Assembly: GCA_963804995.1 (NCBI GenBank)
Contig: CAWDSK010000005.1
Span: 672,001 to 736,000 of the forward strand
From: an uncultured Acidobacteriota bacterium
GTDB lineage: Bacteria > Acidobacteriota > Terriglobia > UBA7540
DNA length: 64,000 nucleotides
Direction: 5' to 3'
The position numbers and the translations under genes are program-made. Shown here piece after piece: positions 45,463-63,259 of the stretch. The notes beneath the pieces were generated by a model, which was not told where the DNA came from, did no database searches, and saw only the letters and a list, made by a program, of their open reading frames with translations. Each line of letters begins with the position of its first letter. The first letter of the stretch is position 1.

Positions 45463-46365
45463 ATGCGGAAGATTGACCGCCTCGTGTGGGCGGAGGGACT
45501 GTGCTTCGAATCCTACGGCGTGAAGATCGGGATTCGTTCGAGCCAACCTGGCGTAATGGACCGGCTCCGACCGTTTCTGCCGCCACGCTGGGAAGCGATC
45601 GAACCGCCGCGCCGTCTCGATGCGCTCTACTCCTGGGTGGTAGGCGGTGAGCGCAAGCCCAAGGTGCGAACTTTCGACGTGATGTACGCGGGCGTGGGCC
45701 GGATCGCGCGGACGCTCAAGCCCGAGGAACTGTTCGAGACGTTTGAAGCGAACTTGCGGTTGACGGTCGCCCTGCTTTCGCGGCGCTTCGTGTTCATCCA
45801 TGCGGGTGCGGTCGGCTGGCGTGGGCGCGCCATCCTGATACCCGGGCGCAGCTTCACCGGCAAGTCGACCCTGGTCGAGGCGTTGGTGCGTGGGGGCGCT
45901 GAATACTTTTCGGACGAATATGCGATGTTGGATAGAAGCGGGCGTGTGCATCCCTTTCCCAAGCCGATTTCGGTCCGGATGCCGGTAACGCTCCGGCAGG
46001 AACCTCGCACCCTGGAAGAGGTCGGCGGCCGGGCTGCCGAATGCGCCATGAAGGTCGGCGCCATACTCGTCACCCGTCACCGTAAGGGTGCACGGTCGCG
46101 CTTTCGCAGGGCCTCACCCGCCCAAGGTGCCCTTGATCTTGTTGCGAACGCGGTGGCGGCACGCTGGGCTCCGGCGCGCGTGCTGCGTGCCACCTGCAAG
46201 GCGAGCGCAGACGCTATGGTGCTCCGCGGCCCGCGCGGCGAAGCGGAAGAAGCAGTGGAACGGTTGTTCGCGATTCTGGACTGGCGAGAAGCAGTACACA
46301 TCAAATCCCCCTCAGGATGTGTTTATGACCTCACAGAAAAATATGCCTGGGCGGCCCAAGGCTAG
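45463..46365 (+). CDS. HPr-kinase-related P-loop kinase (RiPP-associated type)
   Basis: FIHAGAV, GRSFTGKST, FSDE, PFPKP. Confidence 0.8.
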   Translation: MRKIDRLVWAEGLCFESYGVKIGIRSSQPGVMDRLRPFLPPRWEAIEPPRRLDALYSWVVGGERKPKVRTFDVMYAGVGRIARTLKPEELFETFEANLRLTVALLSRRFVFIHAGAVGWRGRAILIPGRSFTGKSTLVEALVRGGAEYFSDEYAMLDRSGRVHPFPKPISVRMPVTLRQEPRTLEEVGGRAAECAMKVGAILVTRHRKGARSRFRRASPAQGALDLVANAVAARWAPARVLRATCKASADAMVLRGPRGEAEEAVERLFAILDWREAVHIKSPSGCVYDLTEKYAWAAQG

Positions 46366-46858
46366 GACCAAGGGCCTGATCGTCGAAGAAGCTGGGAGTG
46401 AGCTGTTGGTTTATGATCGTAACAATGATCACGTCCATTCTCTGAACGGTCCTGCCGCCCGCATCTGGAGGCTCTGCACCGGCAGACGCACGGTGGAACA
46501 GATTGCCTCGGAGCTCGATATCCCTCTCGACCCCGCCGAGCGGAAGCTGGTGGTCCGCGACGCCATTACAAAATTCGAACGTCTGGGTTTGGTTGATGCC
46601 GCCGAGGGCGCGCCTGCCAATCCGTCGCGTCGGATGTGGGCTCGACGAATCAGCATTGGCGTGGCGGCGGGGGTGGCCCTGCCGCTAGTGACTTCCATCA
46701 TTGCGCCCACCTCTGCGTACGCGGCTAGCAAGCTAGGGACTGGCGCCACATGTTCTACGAGCACGCAATGCGCGTCGGGGTGCTGCTGCTCGAACAACAG
46801 TACTGGTCATCACTTCCAATGTGAGACGTCAGCGGTCTGCGGTGGTTCCTGTGAATAG
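46325..46858 (+). CDS. PqqD/RRE domain fused to a Tat-like signal segment and a Cys-rich tail (candidate self-contained precursor)
   Basis: ELLVYD..HSLNGPAARIWRLCTGRRTVEQIA (RRE); SRR..GVAAGVALPLVTSIIAPTSAYAAS; tail with 8 Cys. Confidence 0.8.
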   Translation: MTSQKNMPGRPKARTKGLIVEEAGSELLVYDRNNDHVHSLNGPAARIWRLCTGRRTVEQIASELDIPLDPAERKLVVRDAITKFERLGLVDAAEGAPANPSRRMWARRISIGVAAGVALPLVTSIIAPTSAYAASKLGTGATCSTSTQCASGCCCSNNSTGHHFQCETSAVCGGSCE

Positions 46859-46935
46859 GGATAGCTAGAGTTGGTATTTTTCCCATCCGCACTCGACGGC
46901 CTCTTGCCCTCTTGGTTCGGTCGCGCGATAAAAAT

Positions 46936-46965
46936 GCAAAGGGTACGGCAAGCCGTACCCCTACG
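46936..46965. repeat. REP-like palindrome (GTAGGGG family, reverse orientation); possible terminator between convergent genes
   Basis: aagggtacggc-aa-gccgtacccctac. Confidence 0.6.
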
Positions 46966-47007
46966 ACTAGGGTGGCAGCGCCGATTCGGCAGATCAAAGC
47001 AGTGGAC

Positions 47008-48189
47008 TTATCCGTCTTGATCCGCGTTGATCTGCGGCCCGAACTGATTTTCGCTTGACCCTCGCCGCCTAGTCAGTTTTTCCCAGCCCGCTTGCAGCGA
47101 CCACCGCATCACGCTCCAAGCGATCCGCAACGGCCGCAGCGGGTAATAGAGGAAGAAGAGGAAACGCGGCAGGTGGATGAATCCCCAGTCCGCCAGCGTA
47201 GGCACAAACAGGCGGATAGCGGCAAAGCGCAGCCTTTCGGAAAGCGTCGGGAGCAATCGCGCCGAGAAGGCGATTTCGCTCGGTACCTGGAGAGACGCGA
47301 ACCCCTCGAGCGTCCGCGGGATTCGAGGCGCAAAGCCCGGGGGAGCGGGCGTGCCAAGTTGAGCGCTACAGGCGCCCAAGCTCAACTCGACGGCGTCGAC
47401 CCATCCCAAAGCCTGGGCCTTCTGCTTGACGATTTCCCAGTCGATTCCCCCTCGCGAGCAGAGCGCGTCCAAGTCCACTTGCCACTTCAGTTCGATCCAG
47501 CCGTGCCGGGCGGCGTGTACAGCCAGGTAAAGGAATTCCCACTCGGGGCTGAGCGCTAAGGTGGGACATCCGAAGAAGTTTACGGGGCGAGCCTCTCGCC
47601 AGACCTCACCGATCAGTTTCTCTTCGAGTCGTCCTCCCCAGACGAGGCCCCAGTGCAGTTCCAGCATAGCCTGACTTTCCTTGCCCATCAGGGTCCAGTC
47701 CTTGCCGTAGCGGAGCGTGAGGTCTTTGAAGAGGGGTGGACTCGAGTCGGGCCGGTATCCCGAAGCCCTCACGATCTCAAGGGCCTCGCGAGCGCGCTCC
47801 GGCTGAACCAGGATATCGAGGTCGCCCGTGAGGCGGAGAGAGACGTCGCCATAGAGCTCCTCGGCCAACGCGACGCCCTTGAGCGGGATTGCCGAAATTC
47901 CAGCCTTGCCCAGCAAGCGCAGCAGTCGGGCCAGCTCCTGGGCCAGCCGCAGGCTGCGGTTTCGATTGGCGTGCGAATCCCTCTGGAGCTTCAGGCGAAT
48001 CGGGTCAGGGACGCCCGGGAAACCCAAGAGATGGTGAGTGACCAGAGGCGACACCCGGTGAGCCTGCACGCGCTCGAGAAACTGGCCCCACCCGAGCGGC
48101 CCCGCCAGGATGTCGCGGGCGCGCCGCTCATCTTCCGGTGAGGGCCGCACCCGCGCCAACAGCAGGCACAACTGATCTTCCCGCGTCAT
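47008..48189 (-). CDS. Nucleotidyltransferase family protein (NTP_transf_5-like)
   Basis: PLKGVALA..LYGD..R..GDLDILV, LELHW, YLAVHAARHGW..LKWQVDL. Confidence 0.85.
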   Translation of the reverse strand: MTREDQLCLLLARVRPSPEDERRARDILAGPLGWGQFLERVQAHRVSPLVTHHLLGFPGVPDPIRLKLQRDSHANRNRSLRLAQELARLLRLLGKAGISAIPLKGVALAEELYGDVSLRLTGDLDILVQPERAREALEIVRASGYRPDSSPPLFKDLTLRYGKDWTLMGKESQAMLELHWGLVWGGRLEEKLIGEVWREARPVNFFGCPTLALSPEWEFLYLAVHAARHGWIELKWQVDLDALCSRGGIDWEIVKQKAQALGWVDAVELSLGACSAQLGTPAPPGFAPRIPRTLEGFASLQVPSEIAFSARLLPTLSERLRFAAIRLFVPTLADWGFIHLPRFLFFLYYPLRPLRIAWSVMRWSLQAGWEKLTRRRGSSENQFGPQINADQDG

Positions 48190-49063: not shown

Positions 49064-49964
49064 GTGGTAATCCGCAGAATCCAAGCTGAGACTTGTCAAA
49101 TTGGATATGATCCCGAGGCTAAACTGAAGGAAAAGGCGCCGCTACTCGTACGGGCTTTCATTTTGCAGGACCGCCTGATGTCCGTGATGGTGCGCGCTTC
49201 CGCCATTATCAGAGATGAGATGCTCTGGGCCTGGACGTTGCCGGAAAGCCGTGAGCGGGCCAACCGAGCGATTTTCGGCCACGCGAGAACCTACTACCCC
49301 GGAGGCTCCACATTCGAAAGGGGCCTCTTCGACTGGGAGCGGGCCGCCATAACCTCTCCCCCTTTTCCACCTTCCGGCCGCATTCTTCTGGGTGGGGCGG
49401 GTGCCGGCCGCGAGCTGGCTGGACTCTGCAAGATGGGATACAAGGTTCTGGCCTTTGAGCCCTCAGCCGCGCTAGCCGAGGCGGCAGTCGCAGTGGCTGC
49501 TCCCTACCCGGAGAGCAAAGTCATCTGCGCCTCCTACCGGGATTCTTGTCCTGGCCGTGGAGAAGGGATCAGGCCCGCTTGTACCCCATGTTTGCCACGG
49601 GGAGTTCGACGGAGTCATTCTGGGCTGGACCAGCATTTGCTACGTGTGGAGACCTGAACGCGAGGCCCTGCTGAAGGCTCTGCGCACCATCGCCCCCCGC
49701 GCCCCGGTCCTGCTCAGCTACTGGTTGACTAGCGATCAATCGGAAGGCAGGCTCGGCAAGGTTCGGGGCTGGATCCGTCGCCTGCTACGCATTACAGGCG
49801 CCCGGACTTTGGCCGAACCCGGCGACGCGTTCTTCCCTTGGACGGGTTTTCTCCAGAGGTTGACGCCGGAGGAACTTCAATCGCTGGCGGATCGGACCGG
49901 TTATCAACCAGCTTACATGAGGAGTCAGCCTGAGCCCCACGCGATCTTTATCCCCTGCCCGTAA
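49064..49964 (+). CDS. Class I SAM methyltransferase-like protein; frameshift near 49540
   Basis: GLFDWE, RILLGGAGAGRE, AFEPS, then FDGVILGW in ORF 49557..49964. Confidence 0.7.
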
Positions 49965-50022: not shown

Positions 50023-50202
50023 GTGGCACGGGCAACCTGCCCCGATGCATCGGGGTCTTGCCCGTGAGGAGACATGGCCAGGATGGCCATGCCACAGGAC
50101 GTGGCACGGGCAACCTGCCCCGATGCATCGGGGTTCTGCCCGTAAGGAGACATGGCCAGGATGGCCATGCCACAGGACGTGGCACGGGCATCTTGCCCGT
50201 GA
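50023..50202. repeat. Tandem 78-bp REP/BIME-like repeat (about 2.3 copies)
   Basis: Units start at 50023, 50101 and 50179: gtggcacgggca..ccccgatgcatcgggg..tgcccgt..catggccaggatggccatgccac. Confidence 0.9.
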
Positions 50203-50477: not shown

Positions 50478-51407
50478 ATGGAAGTGCAGGACAAACATCG
50501 GCGGTATTTCCGCATTGCCGGCATTACGGTATGTGTAGAAAGCGACCTGGATTTTGACACCGTCAAGTTCAAGCCGGAATTCGCAGCCTTCGCGGTGGAG
50601 GGACCTGGCGATGACAACGTGACGCTGCGCCACGATTTCGACCTGGCCGACATGAAAGACGAAGACTTGGGAACGGAGGTGTACCGCAAAGCGCCGTGGT
50701 CTATCTCCCGCAAAGGCAATACGTGGCACTATCGCAGTATCTGGTCGCCCGAAAATGAACCCGGGCTGCACCACGTTGCGGTTTTTGATGCCCACTACAC
50801 GCACGCCACGATTCGCAGTCCAGCGCGCTGCAAAGGATTGCTTCGCCAAGTGGGTTGGCACTCGCTCTCGCTCTTCCCGACCGATCAGATTTGGCTTGCA
50901 CCCTTGCTCGCGGATCGCAGCGCGGTCTTGCTCCACTCGGCGGGGGTGATACTGAACGGACAGGGTTTGGTCTTTGCCGGTCATTCGGATGCGGGCAAGT
51001 CCACGATGGTGACTATGCTGAAGAGCGCGGCTGGGGCAGCAAATGGCCACTCGCCTTTGAAGGTGGAAATCCTCTGCGACGACCGCAACGTGGTGCGGCG
51101 CTGGAGGGAGGGTTGGCGCGTGCATGGGACTTGGAGCCACGGCGATGTGACGGAAGTGTCAGCGGCGTCCGCGCCCTTGGCGGCAATTCTATTCCTGCAA
51201 CAGGACACGCGCAATGAAGTCGTCCCCATGACTGATCGCAAGGAAATCTGGAAGCGTTTGCTCTCCACGCTCATCAAGCCCATGGTAACCGCTGAGTGGT
51301 GGCAAAAGGAGTTGGACGTACTGGAGCAGATCGTGAGAGATGTGCCGTGCTTCACGATCCACTTTGATAAGAGCGGGGCAATCGCGGAGAACTTGTTGCG
51401 CCTATGA
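50478..51407 (+). CDS. HPr-kinase-related P-loop protein (reminiscent of SynChlorMet cassette ScmC)
   Basis: LLHSAGV, GHSDAGKST, ILCDDRNVVRR, HGTWSHG. Confidence 0.75.
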   Translation: MEVQDKHRRYFRIAGITVCVESDLDFDTVKFKPEFAAFAVEGPGDDNVTLRHDFDLADMKDEDLGTEVYRKAPWSISRKGNTWHYRSIWSPENEPGLHHVAVFDAHYTHATIRSPARCKGLLRQVGWHSLSLFPTDQIWLAPLLADRSAVLLHSAGVILNGQGLVFAGHSDAGKSTMVTMLKSAAGAANGHSPLKVEILCDDRNVVRRWREGWRVHGTWSHGDVTEVSAASAPLAAILFLQQDTRNEVVPMTDRKEIWKRLLSTLIKPMVTAEWWQKELDVLEQIVRDVPCFTIHFDKSGAIAENLLRL

Positions 51408-52567
51408 GCCAATTCGTCCGGCGGGTTAACAAGCTGGAGAAACCTGTTGCCTCGTGCCTCGAGCAGCTCGACATTGAGCTGACCGAGCGGTGCAACAACG
51501 ATTGCATGCACTGTTGCATCAATCAGCCTGCGAACGACGAGGACGCGCGGCGGCGCGAGATGACCACGGCCCAGGTCAAGGACATCCTGGAACAAGCTGT
51601 CAGCCTCGGGTGTCTGCAGGTGCGCTATACGGGCGGCGAACCGCTCCTGCGGCCCGAATTCGAAGAGCTTTACCTGTTCGCGCGGCGGCTCGGAATGAAG
51701 GTGGTGCTGTACACGAACGCACGCCTCATCACGCCCCACCTTTCCGATTTGTTGGCGCGCATCCCTCCTTTGGAGCCAATTGAAATTACGGTGTATGGGA
51801 TGCACCAGGAAACCTATGAGGCGGTGACGCGTGCGCCCGGGTCTTTCCGACAATTCTGGCGGGGCACAAACCTGTTGTTGGAACACAAGGTGCCGTTCAT
51901 CGTCAAGGGCGCCCTTTTGCCTCCAAACAAGCATGAGATCGACGAATTCGAAGCTTGGGCGGCGACGATCCCTTGGATGAGCGAACCGCCCAGCCATGGG
52001 AAGCACTTTGACTTGCGCAACCGCCGGGACGATGTAAACAAGAACCGACTGATTGAGTCGCTGCGCGTGTCTCCCGAAGAGGGACTCGAGGTGTCTTTGC
52101 GCAACAGCGCGAAGCGTCACCCCTGGACGCCGGAGCTGGCGTCGAGATTCCTGCGCCCGCCTGGCGCCCGCCTCTTCGATTGCGGTGCCTGCGCCGGACG
52201 CCACGCCTGTATCGACGCATACGGACGCGCCCAGCCCTGCATGGGTGTCCGCGCACCGGAGTTGACGCGCAATGTTGTGGGGGCTTCAGAAGGCGACCAT
52301 TGTTCCCTGCAAGATGCGCTGGATCAATTCACCCGCTTCGGCGATCTCCGCGCGACAAATCCTGACTATCTCCAGCGCTGTGCGGCGTGTTTTATCAAAG
52401 GCATATGCAGACAGTGCCCAGCCACGTCGTGGGCGGAGAATGGCGGGCTTGATACGCCGGTGGAATACGAGTGTGAAATCGCTCACGCGTGGGCGCGCCA
52501 CTTGGGCTGGCTGGGCGAGAATGAGCACGGATGGGAAGTGATGGATGGGTGGCAGAGGGTGAAGTAG
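51404..52567 (+). CDS. Radical SAM/SPASM peptide maturase 1
   Basis: CNNDCMHC, TGGEP; SPASM cysteines CGAC..QPC..CAAC..ICRQCP..EC. Confidence 0.93.
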   Translation: MSQFVRRVNKLEKPVASCLEQLDIELTERCNNDCMHCCINQPANDEDARRREMTTAQVKDILEQAVSLGCLQVRYTGGEPLLRPEFEELYLFARRLGMKVVLYTNARLITPHLSDLLARIPPLEPIEITVYGMHQETYEAVTRAPGSFRQFWRGTNLLLEHKVPFIVKGALLPPNKHEIDEFEAWAATIPWMSEPPSHGKHFDLRNRRDDVNKNRLIESLRVSPEEGLEVSLRNSAKRHPWTPELASRFLRPPGARLFDCGACAGRHACIDAYGRAQPCMGVRAPELTRNVVGASEGDHCSLQDALDQFTRFGDLRATNPDYLQRCAACFIKGICRQCPATSWAENGGLDTPVEYECEIAHAWARHLGWLGENEHGWEVMDGWQRVK

Positions 52568-52688
52568 TATAATTATGGGTTGTTGACCAATAACGACCGC
52601 CGGTTAAGAATCCTTTGCCCGGCGATCTTGAGAAAGTGACCTGCTGGTCAGGATGCAGGCTGCACTTAGGGAAGAAAAAGGAGACAAA

Positions 52689-52865
52689 ATGAGCATGGAG
52701 AAGAAGCAATGGGAGAGACCGGAACTCATCGTTCTGGCCCGAAGCAACCCAGAAGAAGTAGTGTTGACAAACTGTAAGGCGAATCCATATCCCACCGCCG
52801 GCAGTGGCAGATGTAAAACCAGTGGTAATGCTTGCACGTCGAACAGTGCTGTCGGCACGAGTTAG
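52689..52865 (+). CDS. RiPP precursor peptide, 58 aa
   Basis: SD AAAAGGAG; MSMEKKQWERPELIVLARSNPEEVVLTNCKANPYPTAGSGRCKTSGNACTSNSAVGTS; WxxPxL leader motif; lies between the rSAM and RRE genes. Confidence 0.85.
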   Translation: MSMEKKQWERPELIVLARSNPEEVVLTNCKANPYPTAGSGRCKTSGNACTSNSAVGTS

Positions 52866-53008
52866 CCCTTGGTCCTCTGGGTTTTGGGCGCCCGAACGCC
52901 CCGCCCTTCTGACAAACCTCCCGCGAGTTGGAGGGTGCTGACCCACGTGCGGAATCATTATGTAACTTCCCAAGGGGGTATGCCAGCCAGAGCAGAGAAT
53001 TTTCGATT

Positions 53009-53347
53009 ATGACGCAACTTGGCCTTAACGCAGTTTGTGTCCCATCCCAGGATGTGGTGGCGCGCGTGATTGAAGGCGATCTGGTTATTGTGCCGCTGGT
53101 GGCCGGCATCGGTGCTGCCGACGACGAACTGTTCACCCTCAACGATACCGGGAAGGCGATCTGGGACCGGCTCGATGGAAAAAAGACCCTGAAGGACGTG
53201 GCGGCGGAATTGGCCGCGGAGTACGAGGCGCCGATCGAGAGCATCGAGAGTGACGTCCTGGGCCTGACCACAGAGCTTTTCGAGCGGAAAATGCTCGTCA
53301 AAGTTACTCCGGAGACAGCCAGTGAGCTCCCAAACCCAACCCCGTGA
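53009..53347 (+). CDS. Stand-alone PqqD family RiPP recognition element
   Basis: DVVARVIEGDLVIVP..LFTLNDTGKAIWDRLDGKKTL..IESDVLGL. Confidence 0.92.
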   Translation: MTQLGLNAVCVPSQDVVARVIEGDLVIVPLVAGIGAADDELFTLNDTGKAIWDRLDGKKTLKDVAAELAAEYEAPIESIESDVLGLTTELFERKMLVKVTPETASELPNPTP

Positions 53348-53813
53348 GCTTCCGCTTTCCGGTCCGGACCTGAAGGGGCTTTTGAGCGCCGTGTTGGCCA
53401 AGGGAGCGGCCTTCCGCTTCCGGGCCAAAGGCGCCAGCATGGCGCCCTTCATCAGGGATGGAGATGTGGTTACGGTCTCACCAGTTCCTGGCACGAACCT
53501 TCGCCCTGGCGACGTGGCGGCATTCACAAATCCCCAGACGGACCGCCTGGTCATCCACCGGATTGTGGGAACCGCGGATGGCTCTTTCCTCATCAAGGGG
53601 GACTCCGTCCGCGAGGGGGATGTTCTCGTTCCGGCCTGTCAGGTCCATGGTCGCGTGACCCGAGTCGAGCGCAAGGGGCGGAACTTGCGCCTTGGCCTCG
53701 GCTCGGAGCGTATTCTAATCGCTTTCCTCAGCCGAACTGGCCTGTTGCCCATACTGCTGGCGCCGGTTCGGGGGATCTACCGATTGATTGTTCCCAGGAA
53801 CCCCTCGGCATGA
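53322..53813 (+). CDS. S24/S26 family peptidase (signal-peptidase-I-like)
   Basis: GASMAPFIRDGD, GDVAAF, VIHRIV, IKGD. Confidence 0.85.
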   Translation: MSSQTQPRELPLSGPDLKGLLSAVLAKGAAFRFRAKGASMAPFIRDGDVVTVSPVPGTNLRPGDVAAFTNPQTDRLVIHRIVGTADGSFLIKGDSVREGDVLVPACQVHGRVTRVERKGRNLRLGLGSERILIAFLSRTGLLPILLAPVRGIYRLIVPRNPSA

Positions 53814-54961
53814 GCGAACCGAAGACGGCATCCATCCGCATCCAGGACTTCCCCCTCTGGGACAAACTCAAGGACCGGCGGGTGCCGCTCTCATTCGATC
53901 TGGAATTGACGGCGCGCTGCAATCTCGACTGCCGTCACTGTTACATCAATCTTCCCGCCGGTGACCGTGAGGTGCAGAAGCGGGAGCTATCCCTGGAGGA
54001 GATTGGCGCCATTGCCGACCAGGCGGTTTCTCTCGGCGCCATGTGGTGCTTGATAACCGGCGGCGAGCCCCTGCTGCGCAAGGACTTCACGGATATATAT
54101 CTGCTGCTGAAGCGGAAGGGGTTGCTGGTCTCAGTATTCACAAACGCCTGCCTGGTGACCGAAGAACACGTCAAACTCTTCCGCAAATACCCTCCGCGCG
54201 ACATCGAGGTCACCGTGTACGGCGCTAGTTCGGAGACGTACGAGCGGGTGACGAGGAGGCCGGGCTCCTTTGACGCCTTCCGGCGTGGCCTGAACCGGCT
54301 GCTGGATAGCGGCGTCAAGGTGCGGCTGAAGGCCATGGCCCTGCGGTCGAACTTGGTGGAATTGCCTGAGATTACCCATTTCTGCCGCGAGCGGACCAAG
54401 GACTTCTTCCGCTTCGACCCGTTGCTCCACCTGCGATTCGATGGCGACCCGCGGCGCAACGAAGAGATCCGTGCAGAACGCTTGACGCCGGGCGAGATCG
54501 TCGCTATCGAGCAGGCTGATGAGGAGCGGGCAGAGGCGTTGCGCAAGGGTTGCGACGAGCTGATCCAGCCGGAACTGAATCATGTGGGGTGCGACCACCT
54601 GTTCCATTGCGGCGCCGGAAACGGCAGCTTCACGGTGAGCTACGATGGGCATTTCCGCCTGTGTTCCGACCTGTGCCAGCCGGATTGCACTTATGACCTT
54701 CGCCAGGGCAGCCTGGCTGACGCCTGGCAGAACTTCGTCCCCAAGGTGCGCGACATGCGGTCAGCCAAGAAGGAGTTCCTCGAAACCTGCCGAGCGTGCC
54801 CAATCGTGAACCTCTGCATGTGGTGCCCAGCCCGCGCCCACCTGGAAAGCGGCAAGATGGACAGCTTCGTACCATACTTCTGTGAGGTGGCGCACGCCCG
54901 GGCCGCAGCCATCGGGGAGAGCGCCGGCCGTCCCTTGAAGCAAACTCCTGTAGTCCGATGA
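53810..54961 (+). CDS. Radical SAM/SPASM peptide maturase 2
   Basis: CNLDCRHC, TGGEP; SPASM HCGAG..RLC..CRAC..LCMWCP..FC. Confidence 0.93.
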   Translation: MSEPKTASIRIQDFPLWDKLKDRRVPLSFDLELTARCNLDCRHCYINLPAGDREVQKRELSLEEIGAIADQAVSLGAMWCLITGGEPLLRKDFTDIYLLLKRKGLLVSVFTNACLVTEEHVKLFRKYPPRDIEVTVYGASSETYERVTRRPGSFDAFRRGLNRLLDSGVKVRLKAMALRSNLVELPEITHFCRERTKDFFRFDPLLHLRFDGDPRRNEEIRAERLTPGEIVAIEQADEERAEALRKGCDELIQPELNHVGCDHLFHCGAGNGSFTVSYDGHFRLCSDLCQPDCTYDLRQGSLADAWQNFVPKVRDMRSAKKEFLETCRACPIVNLCMWCPARAHLESGKMDSFVPYFCEVAHARAAAIGESAGRPLKQTPVVR

Positions 54962-55519
54962 CTACTTCCCATCTACACCTTCGACGAACACAATCAGGCG
55001 TTCTTCTTCATCAGCAACCGCGACACTGACCCACTCGCGCTGATGGCCTATCCCGATTTCACGCGCTTCAACTACACGACGCTGCCTTTGGAGAAGGTCC
55101 CCGGGAATCGCCAGGTGATTCTGGACATCGACTTCGACTTCTTCGCTTGCCGGGATTCGATTCAGAATCACATTGGCTATCAGTTGGAGGTGACCCAAGA
55201 CCAGTTTGCCGCCCGGGAGGCGCTCTTGCGCGATCCGACCCTCCGGTTCAGCGGGATGGCGTTCGATTTCACGGAAAAGGATGGCAGGCGCTTTGTTCAG
55301 GTATCACCCAAGAGGGGAAAGGACGTTTCCCATCTGCCCTCAAAACCGGAGATCGTCGCTGAGATCGGGACTCTGGTGAGCACGCTGGCGGCGAAGAAGG
55401 TCAGGCCGGGGGTCGTCACCCTATGCAGGTCCTGTGTAAGCGGGTATTGCCCCAGAGAATTCGCTGAGATGATTGAAGCCGAATTGAAACCACAACTGAA
55501 GCGTCTTCTTGAGGCGTAG
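54958..55519 (+). pseudogene. UPF0489-like protein, frameshifted after the ATG and apparently shortened
   Basis: ATGA overlap, then PIYTFDEHNQAFFF in another frame, VILDIDFDFF, VVTLCRS..SGYCP. Confidence 0.55.
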
Positions 55520-55817
55520 GGCATAAATATCCTGCCCATCCTCCGCCGCCGACCACCGAATTAGCCCCCTCTGGGAGGCGGTAACTCTGCACGTCCAGTT
55601 TGGCGCCAGGTGAGGAAGTCGGGCTCGGCCTCGCCAGCTCTCCTTCGCTAATTCTGCAGGCCCGCGACTTTTTGTCATTGTGGGACATGTCCCAGTTGTT
55701 GCGCTCCCAGGGGCCTAGCGACCCTTGTCCCACCAACTTCTCCACATTTCGCCCTTTGACGGTTCATTTGCGGTTTAGTCGCCTTAAGCCTCCGTCCCTC
55801 TCCGGTTCAAAGAACTT

Positions 55818-57641
55818 TTGAAGCAAACCCTCCAAATCCTGATACCCCGGCTGCGCAAGGCGCTGGCGCAACTGCCTTACCTTCCGCAGACCCTGTCACT
55901 GGTGTGGACTGCCGCGCGCGGCTGGACGGTCACGTGGGGCGTGCTGCTGCTGCTCCAGGGATTGCTGCCGGTGGCCACCGTCTACGTGACGCGCTGGCTG
56001 GTGAATAGCCTGGTGGCAGCGATTCGCGCCGGAGGCTCCTGGGAAGTTCTGCGGCCGACGCTGCTCATCGTTGCCCTCATGGCGGCCATCCAACTGGCCT
56101 TGCAGATTCTGCGCAGCGCCACGGTCTACGTCCGCACGGCCCAGTCGGAACTGGTCGAGGACCATATCCGCGCGCTGATCCATCGCAAGTCCGCTGCGGC
56201 GGATCTGGCCTTCTACGATTCGGCGGAATTCTACGACCACCTGCATCGGGCACGGAGTGACGCTTCCTATCGCCCCATAGCGCTGGTCGAAAGCCTGGGC
56301 AGCCTGGTGCAGAATGCGATCACGCTGGTGGCCATGGGCGCGGTGCTGATCCCCTTCGGGGCCTGGCTGCCCGGCGCGCTTCTGATCGGCACGGCGCCGG
56401 CGCTGTACGTGGTGGTGCGCTACGCGCTGCTCCAGAACCAGTGGCGGCGCAGGGTCACTCCGGTCGAACGCCGCGCCTGGTATTTCGATTGGCTGCTCAC
56501 CACCGGCGACACGGCCTCGGAGGTCAGGCTGTTCGGTCTGGGCGAGCATTTTCAATCCGCTTACCAAATCCTGCGCCAGCGCTTGCGTGGAGAGCGTCTG
56601 GATCTGGCGCGGAAACAGGTGCTGGCGGAGTTCGGTGCGGGCAGCTTGGGGCTAACAGTCACCGGCGGCGTCATGGCCTGGATGGTGTGGAGGGCGGTGC
56701 GTGGCCTCGCAACCTTGGGAGACTTGGCGATGTTCTACCAGGCCTTCCAACAGGGCCTGGGGCTGATGCGCGGTCTGCTGGAGAATCTTGGCCAGCTTTA
56801 TGGCAACCTGCTGTTCTTGGGAAACCTGTACGAGTTCCTGGGATTGGAACCGCGCGTCGTCAGTCCGCTCCGGCCTTCGCCCGCTCCCCCGGCGGTCGCA
56901 AGCAGTATCAGGCTCGAGCGCGTGCGATTCCGCTATCCCGGAAATGCGCGGCCGGTGCTGGAAGATTTTGATCTGGAAATTCCTGCCGGGCAAATCGTTG
57001 CGGTGGTGGGGCCGAATGGGGCAGGGAAGAGCACGCTGATTAAGCTGCTCTGCCGCTTCTACGACCCGGAGGCTGGCCGCGTGGCGCTTGACGGCGTCGA
57101 CCTTTGCGAATTCAAGATCGAGGAACTGCGCAGTCGCATCACTGTCCTCTTTCAGCAGCCGGTGCATTACAACGATACGGTGCGGGAAAACATCGCCTAT
57201 GGGGATTTGCACGCCCCTGCCGATTCTTTGGAAACAGCCGCGCAGGCCGCGGGCGCGGAGGAGATCATCGCGCGCCTGCCACAGGGTTATGACAGCACAC
57301 TGGGCCGGTGGTTCGCCGACGGCACGGAACTCAGCCTGGGTGAGTGGCAGCGCATCGCTTTGGCCCGCGCTTTCCTGCGGCGTGCGCCCATCCTGATCCT
57401 CGATGAGCCTACGAGCGCCATGGATCCTTGGGCGGAAGCGGATTGGCTGGCGCGGTTCCGGACGCTGGCAACCGGCCGCACGGTTCTGATGATCACGCAT
57501 CGCTTCTCCACGGCAATGTTTGCCGATGTGATTCATGTGATGAGCGAAGGCCGCATCGTGGAATCTGGAACGCATGAGCAGTTGCTCGAAGCAGGCGGCC
57601 GCTACGCACAGGGCTGGGCTACCCTGCGGGAGAGAGCATGA
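55818..57641 (+). CDS. ABC exporter, fused permease/ATP-binding, without a C39 peptidase domain
   Basis: TMD, then GPNGAGKST, LSLGEWQRIALARA, ILDEPTS, ITHR. Confidence 0.93.
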   Translation: MKQTLQILIPRLRKALAQLPYLPQTLSLVWTAARGWTVTWGVLLLLQGLLPVATVYVTRWLVNSLVAAIRAGGSWEVLRPTLLIVALMAAIQLALQILRSATVYVRTAQSELVEDHIRALIHRKSAAADLAFYDSAEFYDHLHRARSDASYRPIALVESLGSLVQNAITLVAMGAVLIPFGAWLPGALLIGTAPALYVVVRYALLQNQWRRRVTPVERRAWYFDWLLTTGDTASEVRLFGLGEHFQSAYQILRQRLRGERLDLARKQVLAEFGAGSLGLTVTGGVMAWMVWRAVRGLATLGDLAMFYQAFQQGLGLMRGLLENLGQLYGNLLFLGNLYEFLGLEPRVVSPLRPSPAPPAVASSIRLERVRFRYPGNARPVLEDFDLEIPAGQIVAVVGPNGAGKSTLIKLLCRFYDPEAGRVALDGVDLCEFKIEELRSRITVLFQQPVHYNDTVRENIAYGDLHAPADSLETAAQAAGAEEIIARLPQGYDSTLGRWFADGTELSLGEWQRIALARAFLRRAPILILDEPTSAMDPWAEADWLARFRTLATGRTVLMITHRFSTAMFADVIHVMSEGRIVESGTHEQLLEAGGRYAQGWATLRERA

Positions 57642-58148: not shown

Positions 58149-58484
58149 TTAGGGTTTGGACTCGCTCGTATTCGTCAATGCAGAATTGCGGGGTGAGTCA
58201 AGGGAGTCGAAGAGGACTGAAGCCAAATGATCTGGAATCCTCTTGTAGCCCTCTTTTCTTACCCATCGGTCCAACCTTGCAATAAAGGCATACCTCCGCA
58301 ACTCTCTTTCTTCTACACCTAAAGCCCGTGCCAATGCTCTACAGATTTGTCGGGTTGGGGGATCTGTTTTCTCCTTCTCCAGTTGGCTTATGTAGGCACT
58401 AGTAAGACGGCATTTTTGGGCTAGCTCGCTTTGAGTTAATTCCGCGTGCAGTCTGAGGTCCTTTAGGTGGGGGCCGAATCTCAT
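58149..58484 (-). CDS. XRE family HTH repressor
   Basis: MRFGPHLKDLRLHAELTQSELAQKCRLTSAYISQLEKEKTDPP..LARALGV. Confidence 0.9.
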   Translation of the reverse strand: MRFGPHLKDLRLHAELTQSELAQKCRLTSAYISQLEKEKTDPPTRQICRALARALGVEERELRRYAFIARLDRWVRKEGYKRIPDHLASVLFDSLDSPRNSALTNTSESKP

Positions 58485-58519
58485 TGCACGCCGATAGTAC
58501 CACAATTGCAAAAAAGCTC

Positions 58520-58548
58520 TTGACAAGATGGGGGCGGCAATCTAGAAT
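58520..58548 (+). promoter_or_regulatory. Near-consensus sigma70 promoter
   Basis: TTGACA (58520-58525)-N17-TAGAAT (58543-58548). Confidence 0.8.
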
Positions 58549-58572
58549 AAAGAAAGTAACTTACTTTCTTTA
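58548..58572. promoter_or_regulatory. Perfect palindrome; candidate repressor operator over the transcription start
   Basis: TAAAGAAAGTAA-C-TTACTTTCTTTA, 12-bp arms. Confidence 0.7.
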
Positions 58573-59142
58573 GTGAGGCGGGTACAGATGTTGAGTGCCG
58601 AAAGGTTGAAACAAGCCGACAAGCTGCCGGACAGCAGTGGTGCCACAAATCCGTGCTATGTCACCCACGGAGATCTACTGGGCCTTGCCACAGAAAACCA
58701 CTGTCAAGGGATAGTGACTGAGCCAGTGCTTCCGCTGTGCCGGCCGGAAAAGAACTTCTGGGTTTTTAAAGCCACGGTTTACAAATCCTCCAAATGCCGC
58801 GGCTTTGTTGGTTACGGCGATGCTCATCCTGGCAATGTCTCTCCTTTGATTTTCAACAATGCCGAGATGCGCATGGCGGAAACGCGCGCCGTCAATCGTG
58901 CCTTGCGCAAGGCCTACGGCATTGGTCTCTGCTCGCTCGAGGAGCTTCCGCCTTGGCGTATGAGCACCGAGCAAGTCTCCGCGTTGCGCCGGACGCTGCA
59001 AATGCGCCCGGCGTTCCAGAAAGGAGCCCAGCATGCGCACCAAAATCCAAGGCCTCAGCCAGGCAACGGAACGAAGCCCTCTGGTCGAAGGCCTGTATCG
59101 AGCCCGAGTGGTTCACTTCGAGCTCCCCGGGCACGCCGCTAA
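58573..59142 (+). CDS. Hypothetical protein, possible Rad52/Sak-like single-strand annealing protein
   Basis: YVTH..LL, FKATVY, GYGDA, MAETRAVNRALRKAYGIG. Confidence 0.55.
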   Translation: MRRVQMLSAERLKQADKLPDSSGATNPCYVTHGDLLGLATENHCQGIVTEPVLPLCRPEKNFWVFKATVYKSSKCRGFVGYGDAHPGNVSPLIFNNAEMRMAETRAVNRALRKAYGIGLCSLEELPPWRMSTEQVSALRRTLQMRPAFQKGAQHAHQNPRPQPGNGTKPSGRRPVSSPSGSLRAPRARR

Positions 59143-59470
59143 GCCTTGTCGGAGAGTGACGTTCTTGATTCTTGACCCTCCCCAGTATGCCGGCCGCTAC
59201 GTGCGCACGCGGCTCTACTGCCATGAGCGCGCCCTTTGGAAGCTCCGTTGGTTCTTGAATGACTTCAACTACGACGCCGACCTCCTGGCCGCCGACGAGT
59301 TAGACGACCGCCGCGTGGTGGGTCTGGAAGGGGTCATTCGCGTTGCCTATTGGGGAAACGACGGTCACCGCCGTTTGGATGTCGAGGGCTTCGCTCCCAG
59401 CGAGCGTTGGGCCGATCTTTCCGTTCATCAACCATCCTGTGAAAGCCTCGCGGAGGCTGCTCAGGCTTAG
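59033..59470 (+). CDS. DUF669-like phage single-stranded DNA-binding protein
   Basis: EGLYRARVV..VTFLIL..YAGR..ALWKLRWFL; SD AAAGGAG before the ATG. Confidence 0.55.
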   Translation: MRTKIQGLSQATERSPLVEGLYRARVVHFELPGHAAKPCRRVTFLILDPPQYAGRYVRTRLYCHERALWKLRWFLNDFNYDADLLAADELDDRRVVGLEGVIRVAYWGNDGHRRLDVEGFAPSERWADLSVHQPSCESLAEAAQA

Positions 59471-59505
59471 ACTTCGGGATAGAACTATCTTGAAAGGAGG
59501 GGATC

Positions 59506-60294
59506 ATGGATCATTACAGTTACACGCAACTTTCCACCTATCTGCAGTGCCCGCTGAAGTACAAGTATCACTACCTGGAAGGCTGGCAGGAAACGGAAGA
59601 CAAAGCCAGTCTCGTCTTCGGCCGAGTGTTTCAAAGCGCCGTCGAAGCCCAATTCCTGCTGCCTGACTCCGTGCGGTTCTTCACCGAGCGCTGGACGGGA
59701 GTCAAGGAAATGCCGCTTGAGTTTACCAACGGTGATAGTTGGGAGAAGATGCTCGAGCAGGGCCAGTCGCTCCTGGAACAGTTCCGCCAGGACAAGCGGG
59801 TCCTAATTGAGGACGGCCGAACGGATTTTCAGGTCAAGTTCCGCCGTCCCCTGCCGCTCAGCCAGAAGCATTTCCTGGCCTATGTGGATGCCATCGGGTA
59901 TGTCGATGGGCGCCACAGCCTGATTGAGTGGAAGACCACTACGCAATCCTACCCGGAGAACCTGGGCCGAGTTTTAGAACTCGATCCCCAGTTGGTCTGC
60001 TACTCTTGGGCGGCGGAGAAGCAGGAGGTGTGTCTCGTAAACTTCGTACGGAAGAAGTTGCCGGAGATCCAGTACCTGCGGGCGCGCATCCGCAAGCGCC
60101 AGTGGAAGGCCTTTGAACAGACCCTGGACCTGCTGGCGAGCGAGATGGAAGCCGGGCACTTCTACCCCCGTTCGGGGATTCGTTATCCCAACAACCAGTG
60201 TTTGAACTGTGCCTATTTGGGGCTGTGCCTGAGGAAGAAGGCCCTGGTGGAAGAGAAGCTGGTCAAGGTGGAGGAGTTGGCGGTCCATGGATAA
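59506..60294 (+). CDS. PD-(D/E)XK nuclease (RecB/AddB-like, 4-Cys Fe-S staple)
   Basis: SYTQLSTYLQCPLKY, YVD..LIEWKT, QLVCY, CLNC..LC; SD GAAAGGAGG. Confidence 0.88.
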   Translation: MDHYSYTQLSTYLQCPLKYKYHYLEGWQETEDKASLVFGRVFQSAVEAQFLLPDSVRFFTERWTGVKEMPLEFTNGDSWEKMLEQGQSLLEQFRQDKRVLIEDGRTDFQVKFRRPLPLSQKHFLAYVDAIGYVDGRHSLIEWKTTTQSYPENLGRVLELDPQLVCYSWAAEKQEVCLVNFVRKKLPEIQYLRARIRKRQWKAFEQTLDLLASEMEAGHFYPRSGIRYPNNQCLNCAYLGLCLRKKALVEEKLVKVEELAVHG

Positions 60295-60985
60295 GGCGCG
60301 GGCACAACAGGTTCTGGCCCGGATCGATGAGATCCTGCGTTGGGAGCAGCGGACGGACCAGCAAAAGGACCAGAAGTTTGCCGAGCTGGGAAAGCACCTG
60401 TGCGTGGTGAGGAAGCACGGGTACTGGCGGCTGCGGCACAAAAGCTTTGAGGCTTACCTGGAGGAGAAGTTTCCGGACTCGCGGCGGAAGGCGTATTACC
60501 TCATGTCGATTCATGACCACCTGCCGCAAATCCCGGCGCCGGAGATCGAGGAACTAGGCTGGTCAAAGGCGTTGGAACTGGCAAAAGTGGCCAGAAGTGA
60601 AGGTCGACGATTTGACAGTGCAACCTGGTTGCACAGGGCGCAGGAGTCGACGAAGCAGGAGTTGAAGGAAGCGGTTCACAAGTACTTCACGGGGGAAGAC
60701 TACGAGCCTTACGAGATGGTTTACTTCAAGCTGTTTGAGAGCCAGTTGCCGGTGGTGGAAAGGGCCCTGTACGTGGCCTCGCGGATGGTGGGGACGGAGC
60801 GGTCGCGGGGTTACTGCCTGGAACTGGTGTGCGCGGATTTTCTGGCAGGTAGGGGGGAGGAGTCGTCGCCGGACGAGATCTTGATGGTGATCCACCGCCT
60901 TGTGCATCTGCTGCCGCGCGAGTACCAGACACGGCTTGTCGGCCAGAATGGGGGCAGGGAATTGGAGACAGCCGGCAAATGCTGA
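60287..60985 (+). CDS. Hypothetical phage-like protein
   Basis: Translationally coupled on both sides; ELGKHL, SFEAYLEE, LGWSKALEL, LELVCADFL. Confidence 0.7.
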   Translation: MDKARAQQVLARIDEILRWEQRTDQQKDQKFAELGKHLCVVRKHGYWRLRHKSFEAYLEEKFPDSRRKAYYLMSIHDHLPQIPAPEIEELGWSKALELAKVARSEGRRFDSATWLHRAQESTKQELKEAVHKYFTGEDYEPYEMVYFKLFESQLPVVERALYVASRMVGTERSRGYCLELVCADFLAGRGEESSPDEILMVIHRLVHLLPREYQTRLVGQNGGRELETAGKC

Positions 60986-61254
60986 AGAGAGTGAAGCGGA
61001 TCAAGCTGGGGAGCCAAATCTACCGGCGTTTGATGAAGCGGGTGCTGGAGCGGGACGAATGGCGATGTCAGAAGTGCGGGTCGCTTGAGAATCTCCAGGT
61101 CCACCACAAGATCAAAAGGAGCCAAATGGGCAACGACTCGCTTGAGAATTTGGTGACGCTGTGTGCCCGCTGCCACATGGCCGAGCACGGGCAGCTTTTC
61201 TATACGGTTCAGGCGATCAGGGTATGTGCCAAGCCAAAAGCGAGGAAGAAGTAA
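60979..61254 (+). CDS. HNH endonuclease
   Basis: VLERDEWRCQKCG..LQVHH..NLVTLCARCH. Confidence 0.92.
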   Translation: MLKRVKRIKLGSQIYRRLMKRVLERDEWRCQKCGSLENLQVHHKIKRSQMGNDSLENLVTLCARCHMAEHGQLFYTVQAIRVCAKPKARKK

Positions 61255-61422
61255 TGTCCCAGGCCATGGCGATTTCGGGCTTTGGCAATTCGGAATTGGT
61301 GTCGGACATAGGAAGATAAATCTCTGAAGTAATAGTGGGCAAAATCCTCGGCCAGCTCAGCATGGCCGATTCAGCGTGGAACTTCCCGTTTCCTATGTGA
61401 AAGACCGATGTATAATGGCGCC

Positions 61423-61989
61423 ATGGCAGTCGAAGTGATTCCCAAGCTTACCTACGAAGAGTTTCGCCAGCTTCCCGAAGACGGCAAGCGCTACGAATTG
61501 ATCCAAGGGAGGGTGCGCGTGAGTCCATCTCCGAGTGCTCGGCACCAGTCCGTTACATTAAACCTGGCGACTAGCCTTCGCCCCTTCGTCCTCAAGAACC
61601 GGCTGGGTGAAGTCTTCGTTGCCCCGCTCGATGTACGCCTGAGCGAGGATACCGCCCTCCAGCCGGACCTGATCTTTGTTGCCACTGCGCGTCTGGAAAT
61701 CGTGCAGGAGAATTTCATCGCCGGAGTCCCGGACCTGGTGGTGGAGATCCTGTCCGCCTCCACGGCGGCCCACGACCGGGCTACAAAACTGAGCCTATAT
61801 GCCCAGGCGGGCGTCCCCCACGTCTGGCTGATGGATCCCCTGCCGCGGACGGTGGAACTCCTCCAGCGCGCCGCCGACAAATACCTGGTCGAGGCGGTCT
61901 ATGCCGGTTGGCAAACCCTCACTTCCTCACTGTTTCCCGGTTGGGAAATCACCCTTGACGAACTCTTCCGCTTTCCCGCTCGCCCTTGA
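61423..61989 (+). CDS. Uma2 family endonuclease
   Basis: LTYEEF..YELIQG..SP..HQ..QPDLIF..PDLVVEILS..K..Y..GVPHVWLMDP. Confidence 0.92.
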   Translation: MAVEVIPKLTYEEFRQLPEDGKRYELIQGRVRVSPSPSARHQSVTLNLATSLRPFVLKNRLGEVFVAPLDVRLSEDTALQPDLIFVATARLEIVQENFIAGVPDLVVEILSASTAAHDRATKLSLYAQAGVPHVWLMDPLPRTVELLQRAADKYLVEAVYAGWQTLTSSLFPGWEITLDELFRFPARP

Positions 61990-62007
61990 AGAGAAACAAA
62001 CACGCCC

Positions 62008-62117
62008 AGTAGAGCCGCCCTTGAGGGCGGCACCATGTAGCGCCGGCCCTGAGGCCGGCACCGACGGGCCGCTCCCGCCATGCGGGACCGGCAGTGCAGG
62101 CTAAAGCCCGGCTCTAA
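62008..62117. repeat. REP-like palindrome cluster
   Basis: gtagagccgcccttgagggcggc..gtagcgccggccctgaggccggc..aagcccggctcta. Confidence 0.55.
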
Positions 62118-62747
62118 GGTGTATTCTCATTAAAATACTGGTTAGTAGTCAGGTTATCATCTCTCCCGCCACCATTGACTCAGTTGCTAATTGGATTGCC
62201 ACCCCAAGAGCAAAAGAAGCCAGTGGGGAAGTGATGTGCTTGCGGAACACGAACAGCTGACCCGAAAATGGTCCGCCGGCAACTGCTCCTGGCACGCCCG
62301 CGCCAAGCCATCAATCCAAATCGACAGGCTCTACCCCACCAGGATACGGGTATGCGGGGTGACTTGGTTCATACCTCGCCGTCCCGCAACGCCCGGTTCC
62401 GCGCCACGAGTTCCGTCGTCGCCATTCCCTTGAACGGCACCCTCTTGGTGTGCCCGCGGAAGTACCTGGCCCTGCTTACTACACGGAGGAGTGGATTGAT
62501 TGTGAACCTCAGCTATTTTCAGAACGTGATCGAGGAGGCCCCCGCAGCGAAAGTCACCGACGAGTATGGGCGGTATCTTCGCCAGCGTGTGGGCGGTTGG
62601 ATGAGGGAGCGGCAGATCTCAGCTGCTGATCGACAACTTACGAGGACGGCGTCCCGGATTGGACGCTTCGTCACAGCAGGGGCTTGACACATCGTCACAT
62701 GACCTGTAATTATCTGCTTAAAGCATGCTACATCATGGAGACACATT

Positions 62748-63035
62748 ATGATCGACCTTCGCGAAGTTCGTTCGGTCACAGAGTTTCAGCGCAATCTCAA
62801 GGGCTATGTCGGGCGGCTCAAAGCGAAGAAGATTCCCCTGGTATTGACGGTCAATGGCCGGGCGGAACTCATCGTGCAGGATGCCGGCAGCTATCAGGCG
62901 TTGCTTGACCGGTTGGAGCGTGCTGAGACAGTAGCCGCTATCCGTCAGGGGATGGAAGAGTTCGAACGCGGCGAAGGAATACACCTGAAACAGGCGGAGC
63001 GACAACTCCGGAAACGACATGGCTTTTCGCGTTGA
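62748..63035 (+). CDS. Phd/YefM family antitoxin
   Basis: RSVTEFQRN..PLVLTVNGRAELIVQDAGSYQALL..IRQGMEE. Confidence 0.88.
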   Translation: MIDLREVRSVTEFQRNLKGYVGRLKAKKIPLVLTVNGRAELIVQDAGSYQALLDRLERAETVAAIRQGMEEFERGEGIHLKQAERQLRKRHGFSR

Positions 63036-63198
63036 GATTTCACCGGGGGCTTTCCACGACCTCGACGAAATCGCCGGGTACATCAAGCAGCAGGGAAGCT
63101 TCGAGCAGGCCGAAGTGTGGTTCAATGAGATCATGGCTGCCATCCGACGGCTATCAGACATGCGGGAAAGCTTCGTCGAGTACGGATCATCGTGCTAA
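63019..63198 (+). pseudogene. Truncated ParE/RelE family toxin
   Basis: MAFRVEISPGAFHDLDEIAGYI..AEVWFNEIMAAIRRLSDM, then an unrelated tail and a stop at 59 aa; overlaps the antitoxin end. Confidence 0.8.
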
Positions 63199-63259
63199 AC
63201 TGGAAAGATAAAAGTCGGCCCGTTGGGGACAAGAGGCCACTACTGTCGAAGAGCGAACA

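Follow-up and report, generated by a model that had tools for sequence, protein, structure and literature searches.

A reduced gene cluster from an uncharacterised family of RiPPs in an uncultured Acidobacteriota bacterium, predicted to join radical SAM/SPASM enzymes to a peptide kinase and a signal peptidase homologue

Gene Organization of the Cluster

The window analysed here is a stretch of 64,000 nucleotides from an uncultured Acidobacteriota bacterium (GenBank assembly GCA_963804995.1, contig CAWDSK010000005.1, positions 672,001 to 736,000). Its subject is a run of forward-strand genes at window positions 50478 to 57641, which an earlier note, made from the sequence alone, had described as a complete-looking orphan cluster for a peptide that is made by the ribosome and modified after translation (RiPP). 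The HPrK-like peptide kinase that opens the run (50478..51407, 309 aa), in which H153, the Walker A K174, D201 and D202 are all intact, is followed by a radical S-adenosylmethionine (rSAM) enzyme with a SPASM domain (rSAM1; 51404..52567, 387 aa; CxxxCxxC plus seven SPASM cysteines) and by a precursor peptide of 58 aa (52689..52865) with a WxxPxL...EExVLxx leader, three Cys and a C-terminal Ser. Downstream lie a discrete RiPP recognition element (RRE; PqqD, PF05402, 56.6 bits; 53009..53347), a homologue of the archaeal/endoplasmic reticulum-type signal peptidase I (S24/S26; 53322..53813) with S39, H79 and D94, predicted to be the leader peptidase, a second rSAM/SPASM enzyme (rSAM2; 53810..54961, 383 aa), again with seven SPASM cysteines, a pseudogene of a UPF0489/PF12640-like peptide arginase (54958..55519) and an MsbA-like ABC exporter without a peptidase domain (55818..57641, the start position being approximate). 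The coordinates and overlaps reported earlier were confirmed, with start/stop overlaps at three junctions (kinase/rSAM1, RRE/S26 and S26/rSAM2). The completeness of the cluster did not hold up: the arginase gene is broken and the third rSAM enzyme usual in relatives is absent. The cluster is present only once in the assembly, between a surface-polysaccharide region of about 45 kb, which precedes it, and a phage-like stretch, which follows.

The Family and Its Precursor Peptides

The family was defined from the relatives of rSAM2: of the 8,000 candidates that were scored, 3,761 reached E 1e-40 or better. From 198 genome loci the best 79 were taken and from 499 metagenome loci the best 80, and 30 regions were added from a sample of the phylum (401 genomes with 38 positives); these family loci are designated below by L-numbers. 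The 189 loci collapsed to 161 groups at 90% identity, with one false match and one truncated peptide removed; 65 groups were too truncated to be assigned to a class of rSAM number, and many contigs were cut short. The 79 genome loci cover 19 named phyla, methanogens included (12 loci carry no phylum), and contain an RRE in 68 cases, the S26 peptidase in 62, rSAM1 in 62, the kinase in 55, an ABC protein in 42, an NTP_transf_5 nucleotidyltransferase in 36 and an arginase in none. A precursor lies in 61 of them, which bears out the description as an orphan RiPP cluster with a conserved adjacent precursor. Among the 121 of 283 neighbour ORFs that were scanned, the accessory genes comprise GNAT genes (8 loci), methyltransferases and polysaccharide genes.

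The precursor gene of the window is preceded by a GGAG ribosome-binding site and is not a chance ORF: a profile made from 78 related precursors, from which it was left out, gives it E 5.6e-16, and the runner-up among the genome's 149,419 six-frame ORFs reaches 0.61. The leader consensus of the family is WxxPxLxVLxRxxPEExVLxxCK. Across 161 precursors, conservation reaches 96% for W(-21), 96% for P(-18), 91% for L(-16), 97% for E(-6) and 98% for L(-3), and the core starts with Cys (100%) followed by Lys (94%); the predicted core of the window precursor, of 30 aa, accordingly begins at Cys29-Lys. Outside the cysteines, Lys2 and the final residue the cores are hypervariable, save for a loose Gly-Pro. 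Ser (159) or Thr (11) terminates 170 of 178 cores, compared with 17% Ser/Thr elsewhere in the cores. We rejected the idea that the L-x-x-C site marks a lipoprotein, since the leader contains no hydrophobic segment. In L051, L068, L143, L205 and L042, five to seven different precursor genes accompany a single enzyme set, suggesting combinatorial product libraries.

Comparison of 79 precursors with NCBIfam and Pfam gave only weak, scattered matches, and the Atlas comparison returned unnamed clusters only. No description of the family was found in the literature searched, which included text of PMC13692751, PMC11002830 and PMC7470986 and mostly did not extend to subscription journals. The spreadsheet of PMC10288494 held no matches to the family; the PDF supplement of that paper may list these enzymes.

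The Radical SAM Enzymes

The proposal that the two rSAM enzymes are paralogous proved correct: rSAM1 and rSAM2 share 36% identity over 355 aa (E 1e-60), and the motifs quoted earlier are common to both. In a tree of 44 rows, rSAM1, rSAM2, the third enzyme of related loci (rSAM3), the single enzyme of a one-rSAM sister group and the SynChlorMet enzymes ScmE/F each fall on one side of a branch with support of 97-100. On these comparisons rSAM1, rSAM2 and rSAM3 are three separate, fixed orthologous groups. The seven SPASM cysteines are kept in all four family groups, and both rSAM1 and rSAM2 keep all 10 cluster-binding cysteines, with a within-group conservation of 58-63%. At this locus, changes to family-invariant columns amount to 0 of 83 in rSAM2, 5 of 102 in rSAM1 (conservative) and 4 of 58 in the kinase. 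The predicted structure of rSAM2 confirmed the SPASM rSAM fold, its structural neighbours being SkfB (Z 23.7), SuiB (23.3), anSME (23.2) and CteB (22.6).

The Kinase, the RRE and the Signal Peptidase Homologue

The predicted structure of the kinase shows the PEPCK/HPrK nucleotide fold, and among 108 kinase domains of the family the His motif is kept in 107, a strict Walker A in 89 and the Asp-Asp pair in 99. The Ser-His-Asp triad of the S26 protein is invariant in 63 aligned proteins; the protein is closest to Sec11, with Sec11C/A as the best PDB matches. The RRE gene stands directly upstream of the S26 gene in 92 of 107 loci, and an NTP transferase is present in 33 of 71 long loci. L003 (9120-9992), L054 (3645-4592), L231 (4490-5461) and similar loci hold an S24/S26-like gene of about 300 aa in place of the short peptidase, and the copies examined have Cys at the expected position of the catalytic Ser (G-T-C-M).

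These parts have counterparts of described function. In the linear polyphosphorylated peptide (LPP) system (lppAKBSDN) of Paenibacillus alginolyticus, whose clusters are located in capsule loci, the archaeal-type signal peptidase LppS cleaves the leader only with its RRE and needs a hydrophobic residue at -3, and LppK places several phosphates on one Ser (Popov et al., 2026; PMC13381572). In lasso precursors the C-terminal Ser is the phosphorylation target of the kinases PadeK and PsmK, and the addition of hexose requires PsmN (PMC9266682, PMC6993621).

Loss of rSAM3 and the Number of Cysteines

In 52 ORFs the kinase forms the C-terminal half of a fusion of about 655 aa with rSAM3, and the start of the window kinase coincides exactly with the linker at which relatives join rSAM3. 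Neither rSAM3 nor a remnant of it was found upstream of the kinase or throughout the assembly, which is 92% complete. Within the genus of the window, where 4 of 29 genomes match the family, the two clusters examined both carry the rSAM3-kinase fusion and 4-Cys precursors. Three rSAM enzymes are the norm of the family, and the window locus is a reduced, two-rSAM form.

The precursors follow the same division. At least four Cys were found in the precursors of 57 of the 60 three-rSAM groups, in none of 7 two-rSAM groups (the window excluded) and in none of 18 one-rSAM groups. In multi-rSAM loci six residues follow the last Cys in 122 of 159 cores; the window precursor, with three Cys in all, lacks this conserved Cys seven from the end, and its tail equals that of the 4-Cys relative L035 minus the last Cys. 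A fresh test drew on two further phyla, in which 12 and 15 of 401 genomes gave a match, and on two same-genus loci, with all 11 new short-frame matches and 9 of 13 long-frame matches fetched. Precursors were found in 7 of 8 two-rSAM loci, all 11 of them with three Cys, and in 8 of 11 three-rSAM loci, all 8 with one of at least four Cys (two counted by eye). The mixed locus L243 aside, the result was 8 of 8 three-rSAM loci vs 0 of 7 two-rSAM loci with at least four Cys, in sets of which one locus each duplicates an earlier locus and in which five two-rSAM loci look like one short-kinase lineage. L234-L238 form a two-rSAM lineage with kinases about 90 N-terminal residues short.

The kinase tree offered seven independent pairs on well-supported branches, of which six went the same way, none the opposite way and one was tied (sign test, median p 0.031, range to 0.0625); before the new loci were included there were five pairs (p 0.0625). 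Left out of this test were L239 (no rSAM), L242 (contig edge) and L243 (both kinase forms, only a 3-Cys precursor). The stand-alone kinases arose repeatedly: they do not form one clade (12 vs 69 rows, approximately unbiased test, p 1.8e-10), their N-termini differ and one of them keeps the first residues of rSAM3. The covariation ties at least rSAM3 to one cysteine, whatever the type of bond.

The one-rSAM sister cassette (L110-L129, L138) is common in the phylum of the window; its precursors have a YxxP leader and 2-3 Cys, and they end in Cys-x4-Ser. The WxxP leader of the multi-rSAM form and the YxxP leader of the one-rSAM form echo the Y/W discrimination reported for LPP/paeninodin RREs.

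The Arginase Remnant

The UPF0489-like gene noted earlier is present, as a remnant. Its ATG (54958) is out of frame, and it lacks residues 22-130 of its closest full-length relative (about 109 codons), the DxHxD motif among them. In peptide arginases DXHXD is a metal-binding motif (PMC12703449), and with this motif deleted and the start out of frame the remnant cannot be active. It aligns only to positions 134-286 of the peptide-arginase model (NF052474, 78.6 bits vs a cut-off of 350), is 74-76% identical to full-length UPF0489 proteins, with full-length relatives of about 300 aa reaching up to 78%, and retains the EH(N)xAF and LDIDxDFF motifs. A PF12640 search of its own genome gave no match, the controls being blank too. 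With intact copies following rSAM2 at only 2 of 189 other loci, the arginase counts as an accessory gene. A link between arginine-to-ornithine conversion and the Cys-Lys/Arg start of the core was considered and dropped: L148 combines Cys-Arg with an intact arginase, but other Cys-Arg precursors occur at loci that lack the gene.

Proposed Pathway and Its Alternatives

The locus is a genuine but reduced representative of a RiPP family that is still uncharacterised and is assembled from known parts, on a scaffold with published precedent; the norm of three rSAM enzymes, the broken arginase and the LPP precedent for the S26 peptidase and the kinase are points beyond the first reading. We consider the chances evenly poised that, as a whole, the pathway consists of an LPP/paeninodin-type scaffold with added rSAM enzymes, here in the reduced two-rSAM form. 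In such a pathway the discrete RRE would very probably bind the WxxPxL leader. The enzymes rSAM1 and rSAM2 would then act on core cysteines, Cys-to-carbon thioethers being the outcome that we favour somewhat, and the fourth Cys would normally be handled by the absent rSAM3. It is likely that the kinase would phosphorylate or polyphosphorylate the C-terminal Ser58, and a nucleotidyltransferase may add a further decoration to this residue. The RRE would also present the leader to the signal peptidase homologue, whose role as the peptidase we regard as highly likely, and the position of the cut, after L(-3)-x-x(-1) to leave the N-terminal Cys29-Lys core, as fairly probable. The ABC transporter would finally export a product of about 30 residues, beside a capsule/exopolysaccharide locus. 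The phosphorylation and export proposed earlier are probable, in view of the intact kinase motifs, the Ser/Thr ends and the MsbA-like exporter.

Several findings weigh against this pathway. No conserved thioether acceptor residue was found near any Cys in 161 precursors. Fold comparison puts C-S, C-C and oxidase enzymes level as neighbours of rSAM2, at identities of at most 20%. At barrel positions rSAM3 is unlike rSAM1/2 and the single enzyme (E to M, K to Q, D to A) and may therefore do different chemistry. The precursors of the one-rSAM sister group have three Cys in 16 of 19 cases, the same number as in two-rSAM loci, and no 4-Cys precursor was seen in three three-rSAM loci or in L243. Nine residues follow the last Cys of the window precursor, the sole such case among 159, and two nearby genes are broken. 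In LPP, furthermore, the phosphorylated residue is core Ser3 and not the terminus (PMC13381572).

The suggestion that two enzymes divide the crosslinks is indirectly supported by the fixed orthologous groups and by the loss of rSAM3 together with one Cys; the precursors of the one-rSAM group, however, also have mostly three Cys, so that a simple rule of one enzyme per crosslink is not established. On the same scaffold, rSAM1 and rSAM2 could instead form an obligate complex in which one of them catalyses all crosslinks, like TrnC/TrnD of thuricin CD, where two rSAM enzymes can act as one complex (PMC12093266). The two enzymes do occur together in every multi-rSAM locus, cut contigs apart, a single enzyme suffices for the 3-Cys precursors of the sister group, and the barrel residues are common to rSAM1, rSAM2 and that single enzyme. 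Both nevertheless keep a full, separately conserved set of cluster-binding cysteines, and since the loss of rSAM3 is tolerated and tracks one Cys, site-specific roles would exist in the family; we regard the complex as rather unlikely.

The chemistry of the enzymes could also be other than thioether formation: they might epimerise residues, oxidise Cys or Ser, form C-C or C-N bonds or act on the phosphorylated C-terminal Ser, with the cysteines serving as disulfides or metal ligands. The lack of a conserved acceptor is consistent with this, as is the fourth strand, which reads T/A-V/L-Y-G in all four rSAM groups, whereas characterised SPASM enzymes generally have S-L-D-G. In addition, rSAM3 is fused to the kinase, and the fixed Cys-x5-Ser spacing could serve a C-terminal reaction. 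The number of Cys, however, follows the presence of rSAM3, the odd count of three is common and fits disulfides poorly, and in a 7-Cys SPASM domain one iron site stays open, as it does in enzymes that form thioethers. Thioether formation by rSAM1 and rSAM2 is preferred, and these other chemistries are judged unlikely.

This copy may, finally, be decaying, and the family could be as described here while this copy of it yields no mature product. The broken arginase gene, the split methyltransferase upstream, the precursor without a Cys seven from its end, the patchy presence in the genus and the adjoining phage-like region all point that way. The six core genes, on the other hand, are open, without damage like that of the arginase gene, and keep the family-invariant columns; the arginase is a rare accessory, two-rSAM/3-Cys forms recur across many lineages and the one-base breaks could be assembly errors. 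A copy without a mature product is, on balance, an improbable explanation.

A further-reaching, tentative proposal is that the family forms a new class of RiPP, with each of the paralogous rSAM/SPASM enzymes responsible for a single internal Cys whatever the sequence around it, the number of enzymes in two- and three-enzyme clusters equalling the Cys count minus the N-terminal Cys. The product would carry sulfur staples, a phosphorylated or phosphoglycosylated C-terminus and a free Cys at the N-terminus, and would be coupled to cell-surface polysaccharide; the kinase-fused rSAM3, given its different barrel residues, may run a novel phosphoserine-tied reaction, and the locus would be a natural rSAM3 deletion. 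The natural one-, two- and three-enzyme forms, with their matching Cys counts, make the sharing of work by paralogous rSAM enzymes on one peptide directly testable, and the hypervariable cores suggest sequence-tolerant stapling enzymes. An intact three-rSAM or a typical two-rSAM cluster is a better experimental target than this slightly damaged copy.

Surroundings of the Cluster

A second RiPP-like module (45463-48189) closes the polysaccharide locus. It comprises an HPrK-like gene (45463-46365), a fusion of an RRE with a precursor-like protein whose tail holds 8 Cys (46325-46858; its Atlas clusters have 57-74 members and show PqqD only) and, on the opposite strand, an NTP_transf_5 nucleotidyltransferase (47008..48189, minus strand). 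The latter lies 2.3 kb upstream of our cluster and is an uncertain member of it, being at most 38% identical to the family copies, whose median best match is 58%; it could serve either this cluster or the neighbouring module.

The methyltransferase-like gene (49064-49964) is split across two frames near 49544, which could be an assembly error; an undivided copy of 286 aa exists in a same-genus genome, apart from the cluster of that genome. A palindrome-rich unit of 78 nt is repeated 2.3 times at 50023-50198 and is dispersed across the genus, in many of its genomes. Another dispersed repeat, at about 55570-55780, has at least six further copies in this genome. Right after the exporter, HTH regulator, PD-(D/E)XK nuclease and Uma2 genes (58149-64000) make up a region like a prophage or an integrative and conjugative element. 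The locus had no match in the plasmid collection compared with it, and promoter and terminator scans gave only chance-level signals.

Comparison with Known Systems

The cluster had been likened to SynChlorMet (TIGR04248-04251), and the likeness of architecture stands: both have two rSAM/SPASM enzymes together with a PqqD and an HPrK-like protein, and SynChlorMet occurs in similar anaerobes, at times right beside the cassette. Membership of that cassette, or of the cofactor enzymes AhbC, AhbD, NirJ and PqqE, is extremely improbable, even though the best NCBIfam matches, weak as they are, are to Scm and Ahb models. All scores fall far under the cut-offs and a conserved precursor is adjacent. The ScmE and ScmF models (TIGR04250/TIGR04251) gave 58.1/71.1 and 75.5/82.9 bits vs a cut-off of 400, ScmC 31.7 vs 125 and ScmD 27.4 vs 100. 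The best bits were 94.9 vs 500 for AhbD, 80.3 vs 515 for NirJ and 76 vs 650 for AhbC, so that the rSAM enzymes are not AhbC, AhbD or NirJ, the enzymes that the earlier note had named in its refuting condition, and 60.9 vs 381 for PqqE and 73.6 vs 265 for MftC. As positive controls, a true ScmE in L021 (520.7 bits) and ScmF in L072 (589.7 bits) both passed; they are genes separate from the cassette, beside which they stand, and the true Scm enzymes are 22-28% identical to the family rSAM enzymes, on a branch of their own. SynChlorMet-type genes directly adjoin the cassette in L021, L043, L072, L131 and L135. The remnant differs from the peptide arginases OspR, FlmR and OhkR (PF12640; PMC12703449) in lacking DxHxD.

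With LPP the cluster shares the discrete RRE, the Ser-His-Asp archaeal-type signal peptidase I, the HprK-like kinase, the MsbA-like exporter, a [Y/W]xxPxL leader with a hydrophobic -3 residue and the capsular polysaccharide setting (PMC13381572). An NTP transferase is often present in LPP clusters and in part of the family loci, the copy near our cluster being an uncertain member. LPP differs in its precursor motif, YxxPxVLxHQxIxFETxxS with the phospho-site at core Ser3, and in that rSAM has 0 mentions in the main text of that paper; in its six supplementary files, by term search, Radical_SAM occurs only as one of 834 column headings. The family, by comparison, has cores of 3-4 Cys, one to three rSAM/SPASM enzymes, a variable core position 3 and the C-terminal Ser/Thr as sole conserved hydroxyl.

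The paeninodin and pseudomycoidin systems (PadeK, PsmK, PsmN; PMC9266682, PMC6993621) resemble the cluster in the WxxP leader, the His-Lys-Asp-Asp HPrK-like kinase, the invariant C-terminal Ser, the NTP_transf_5 partner (here of uncertain membership) and the ABC exporter. Weak matches to the PadeA model came from 4 of 79 precursors (best E 0.034). No macrolactam synthetase (C) or B2 protease was found in the cluster, whose genes all belong to other families, or among the 121 of 283 neighbour ORFs scanned; compared with the phosphorylated lasso systems, rSAM enzymes and the S26 peptidase stand in their place.

With the sacti- and ranthipeptide systems (SkfB, CteB, TrnC/TrnD) the cluster has in common RRE-dependent rSAM/SPASM enzymes, Cys-rich cores and the same fold (Z 22-24). 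It differs from them in its low identity (20% or less), in passing no family model, in its discrete RRE, its additional kinase and S26 peptidase and the lack of a conserved acceptor, and thioethers are here only predicted. The family is large and has neither a curated model nor a characterised product in the literature searched; there, too, we did not meet its combination of RRE/signal-peptidase/kinase tailoring with SPASM radical chemistry, each of which has been studied as a module. By its sequences, the pathway appears to be LPP/paeninodin-type tailoring joined to sacti-/ranthipeptide-type enzymes, outside LPP, lasso and SynChlorMet membership.

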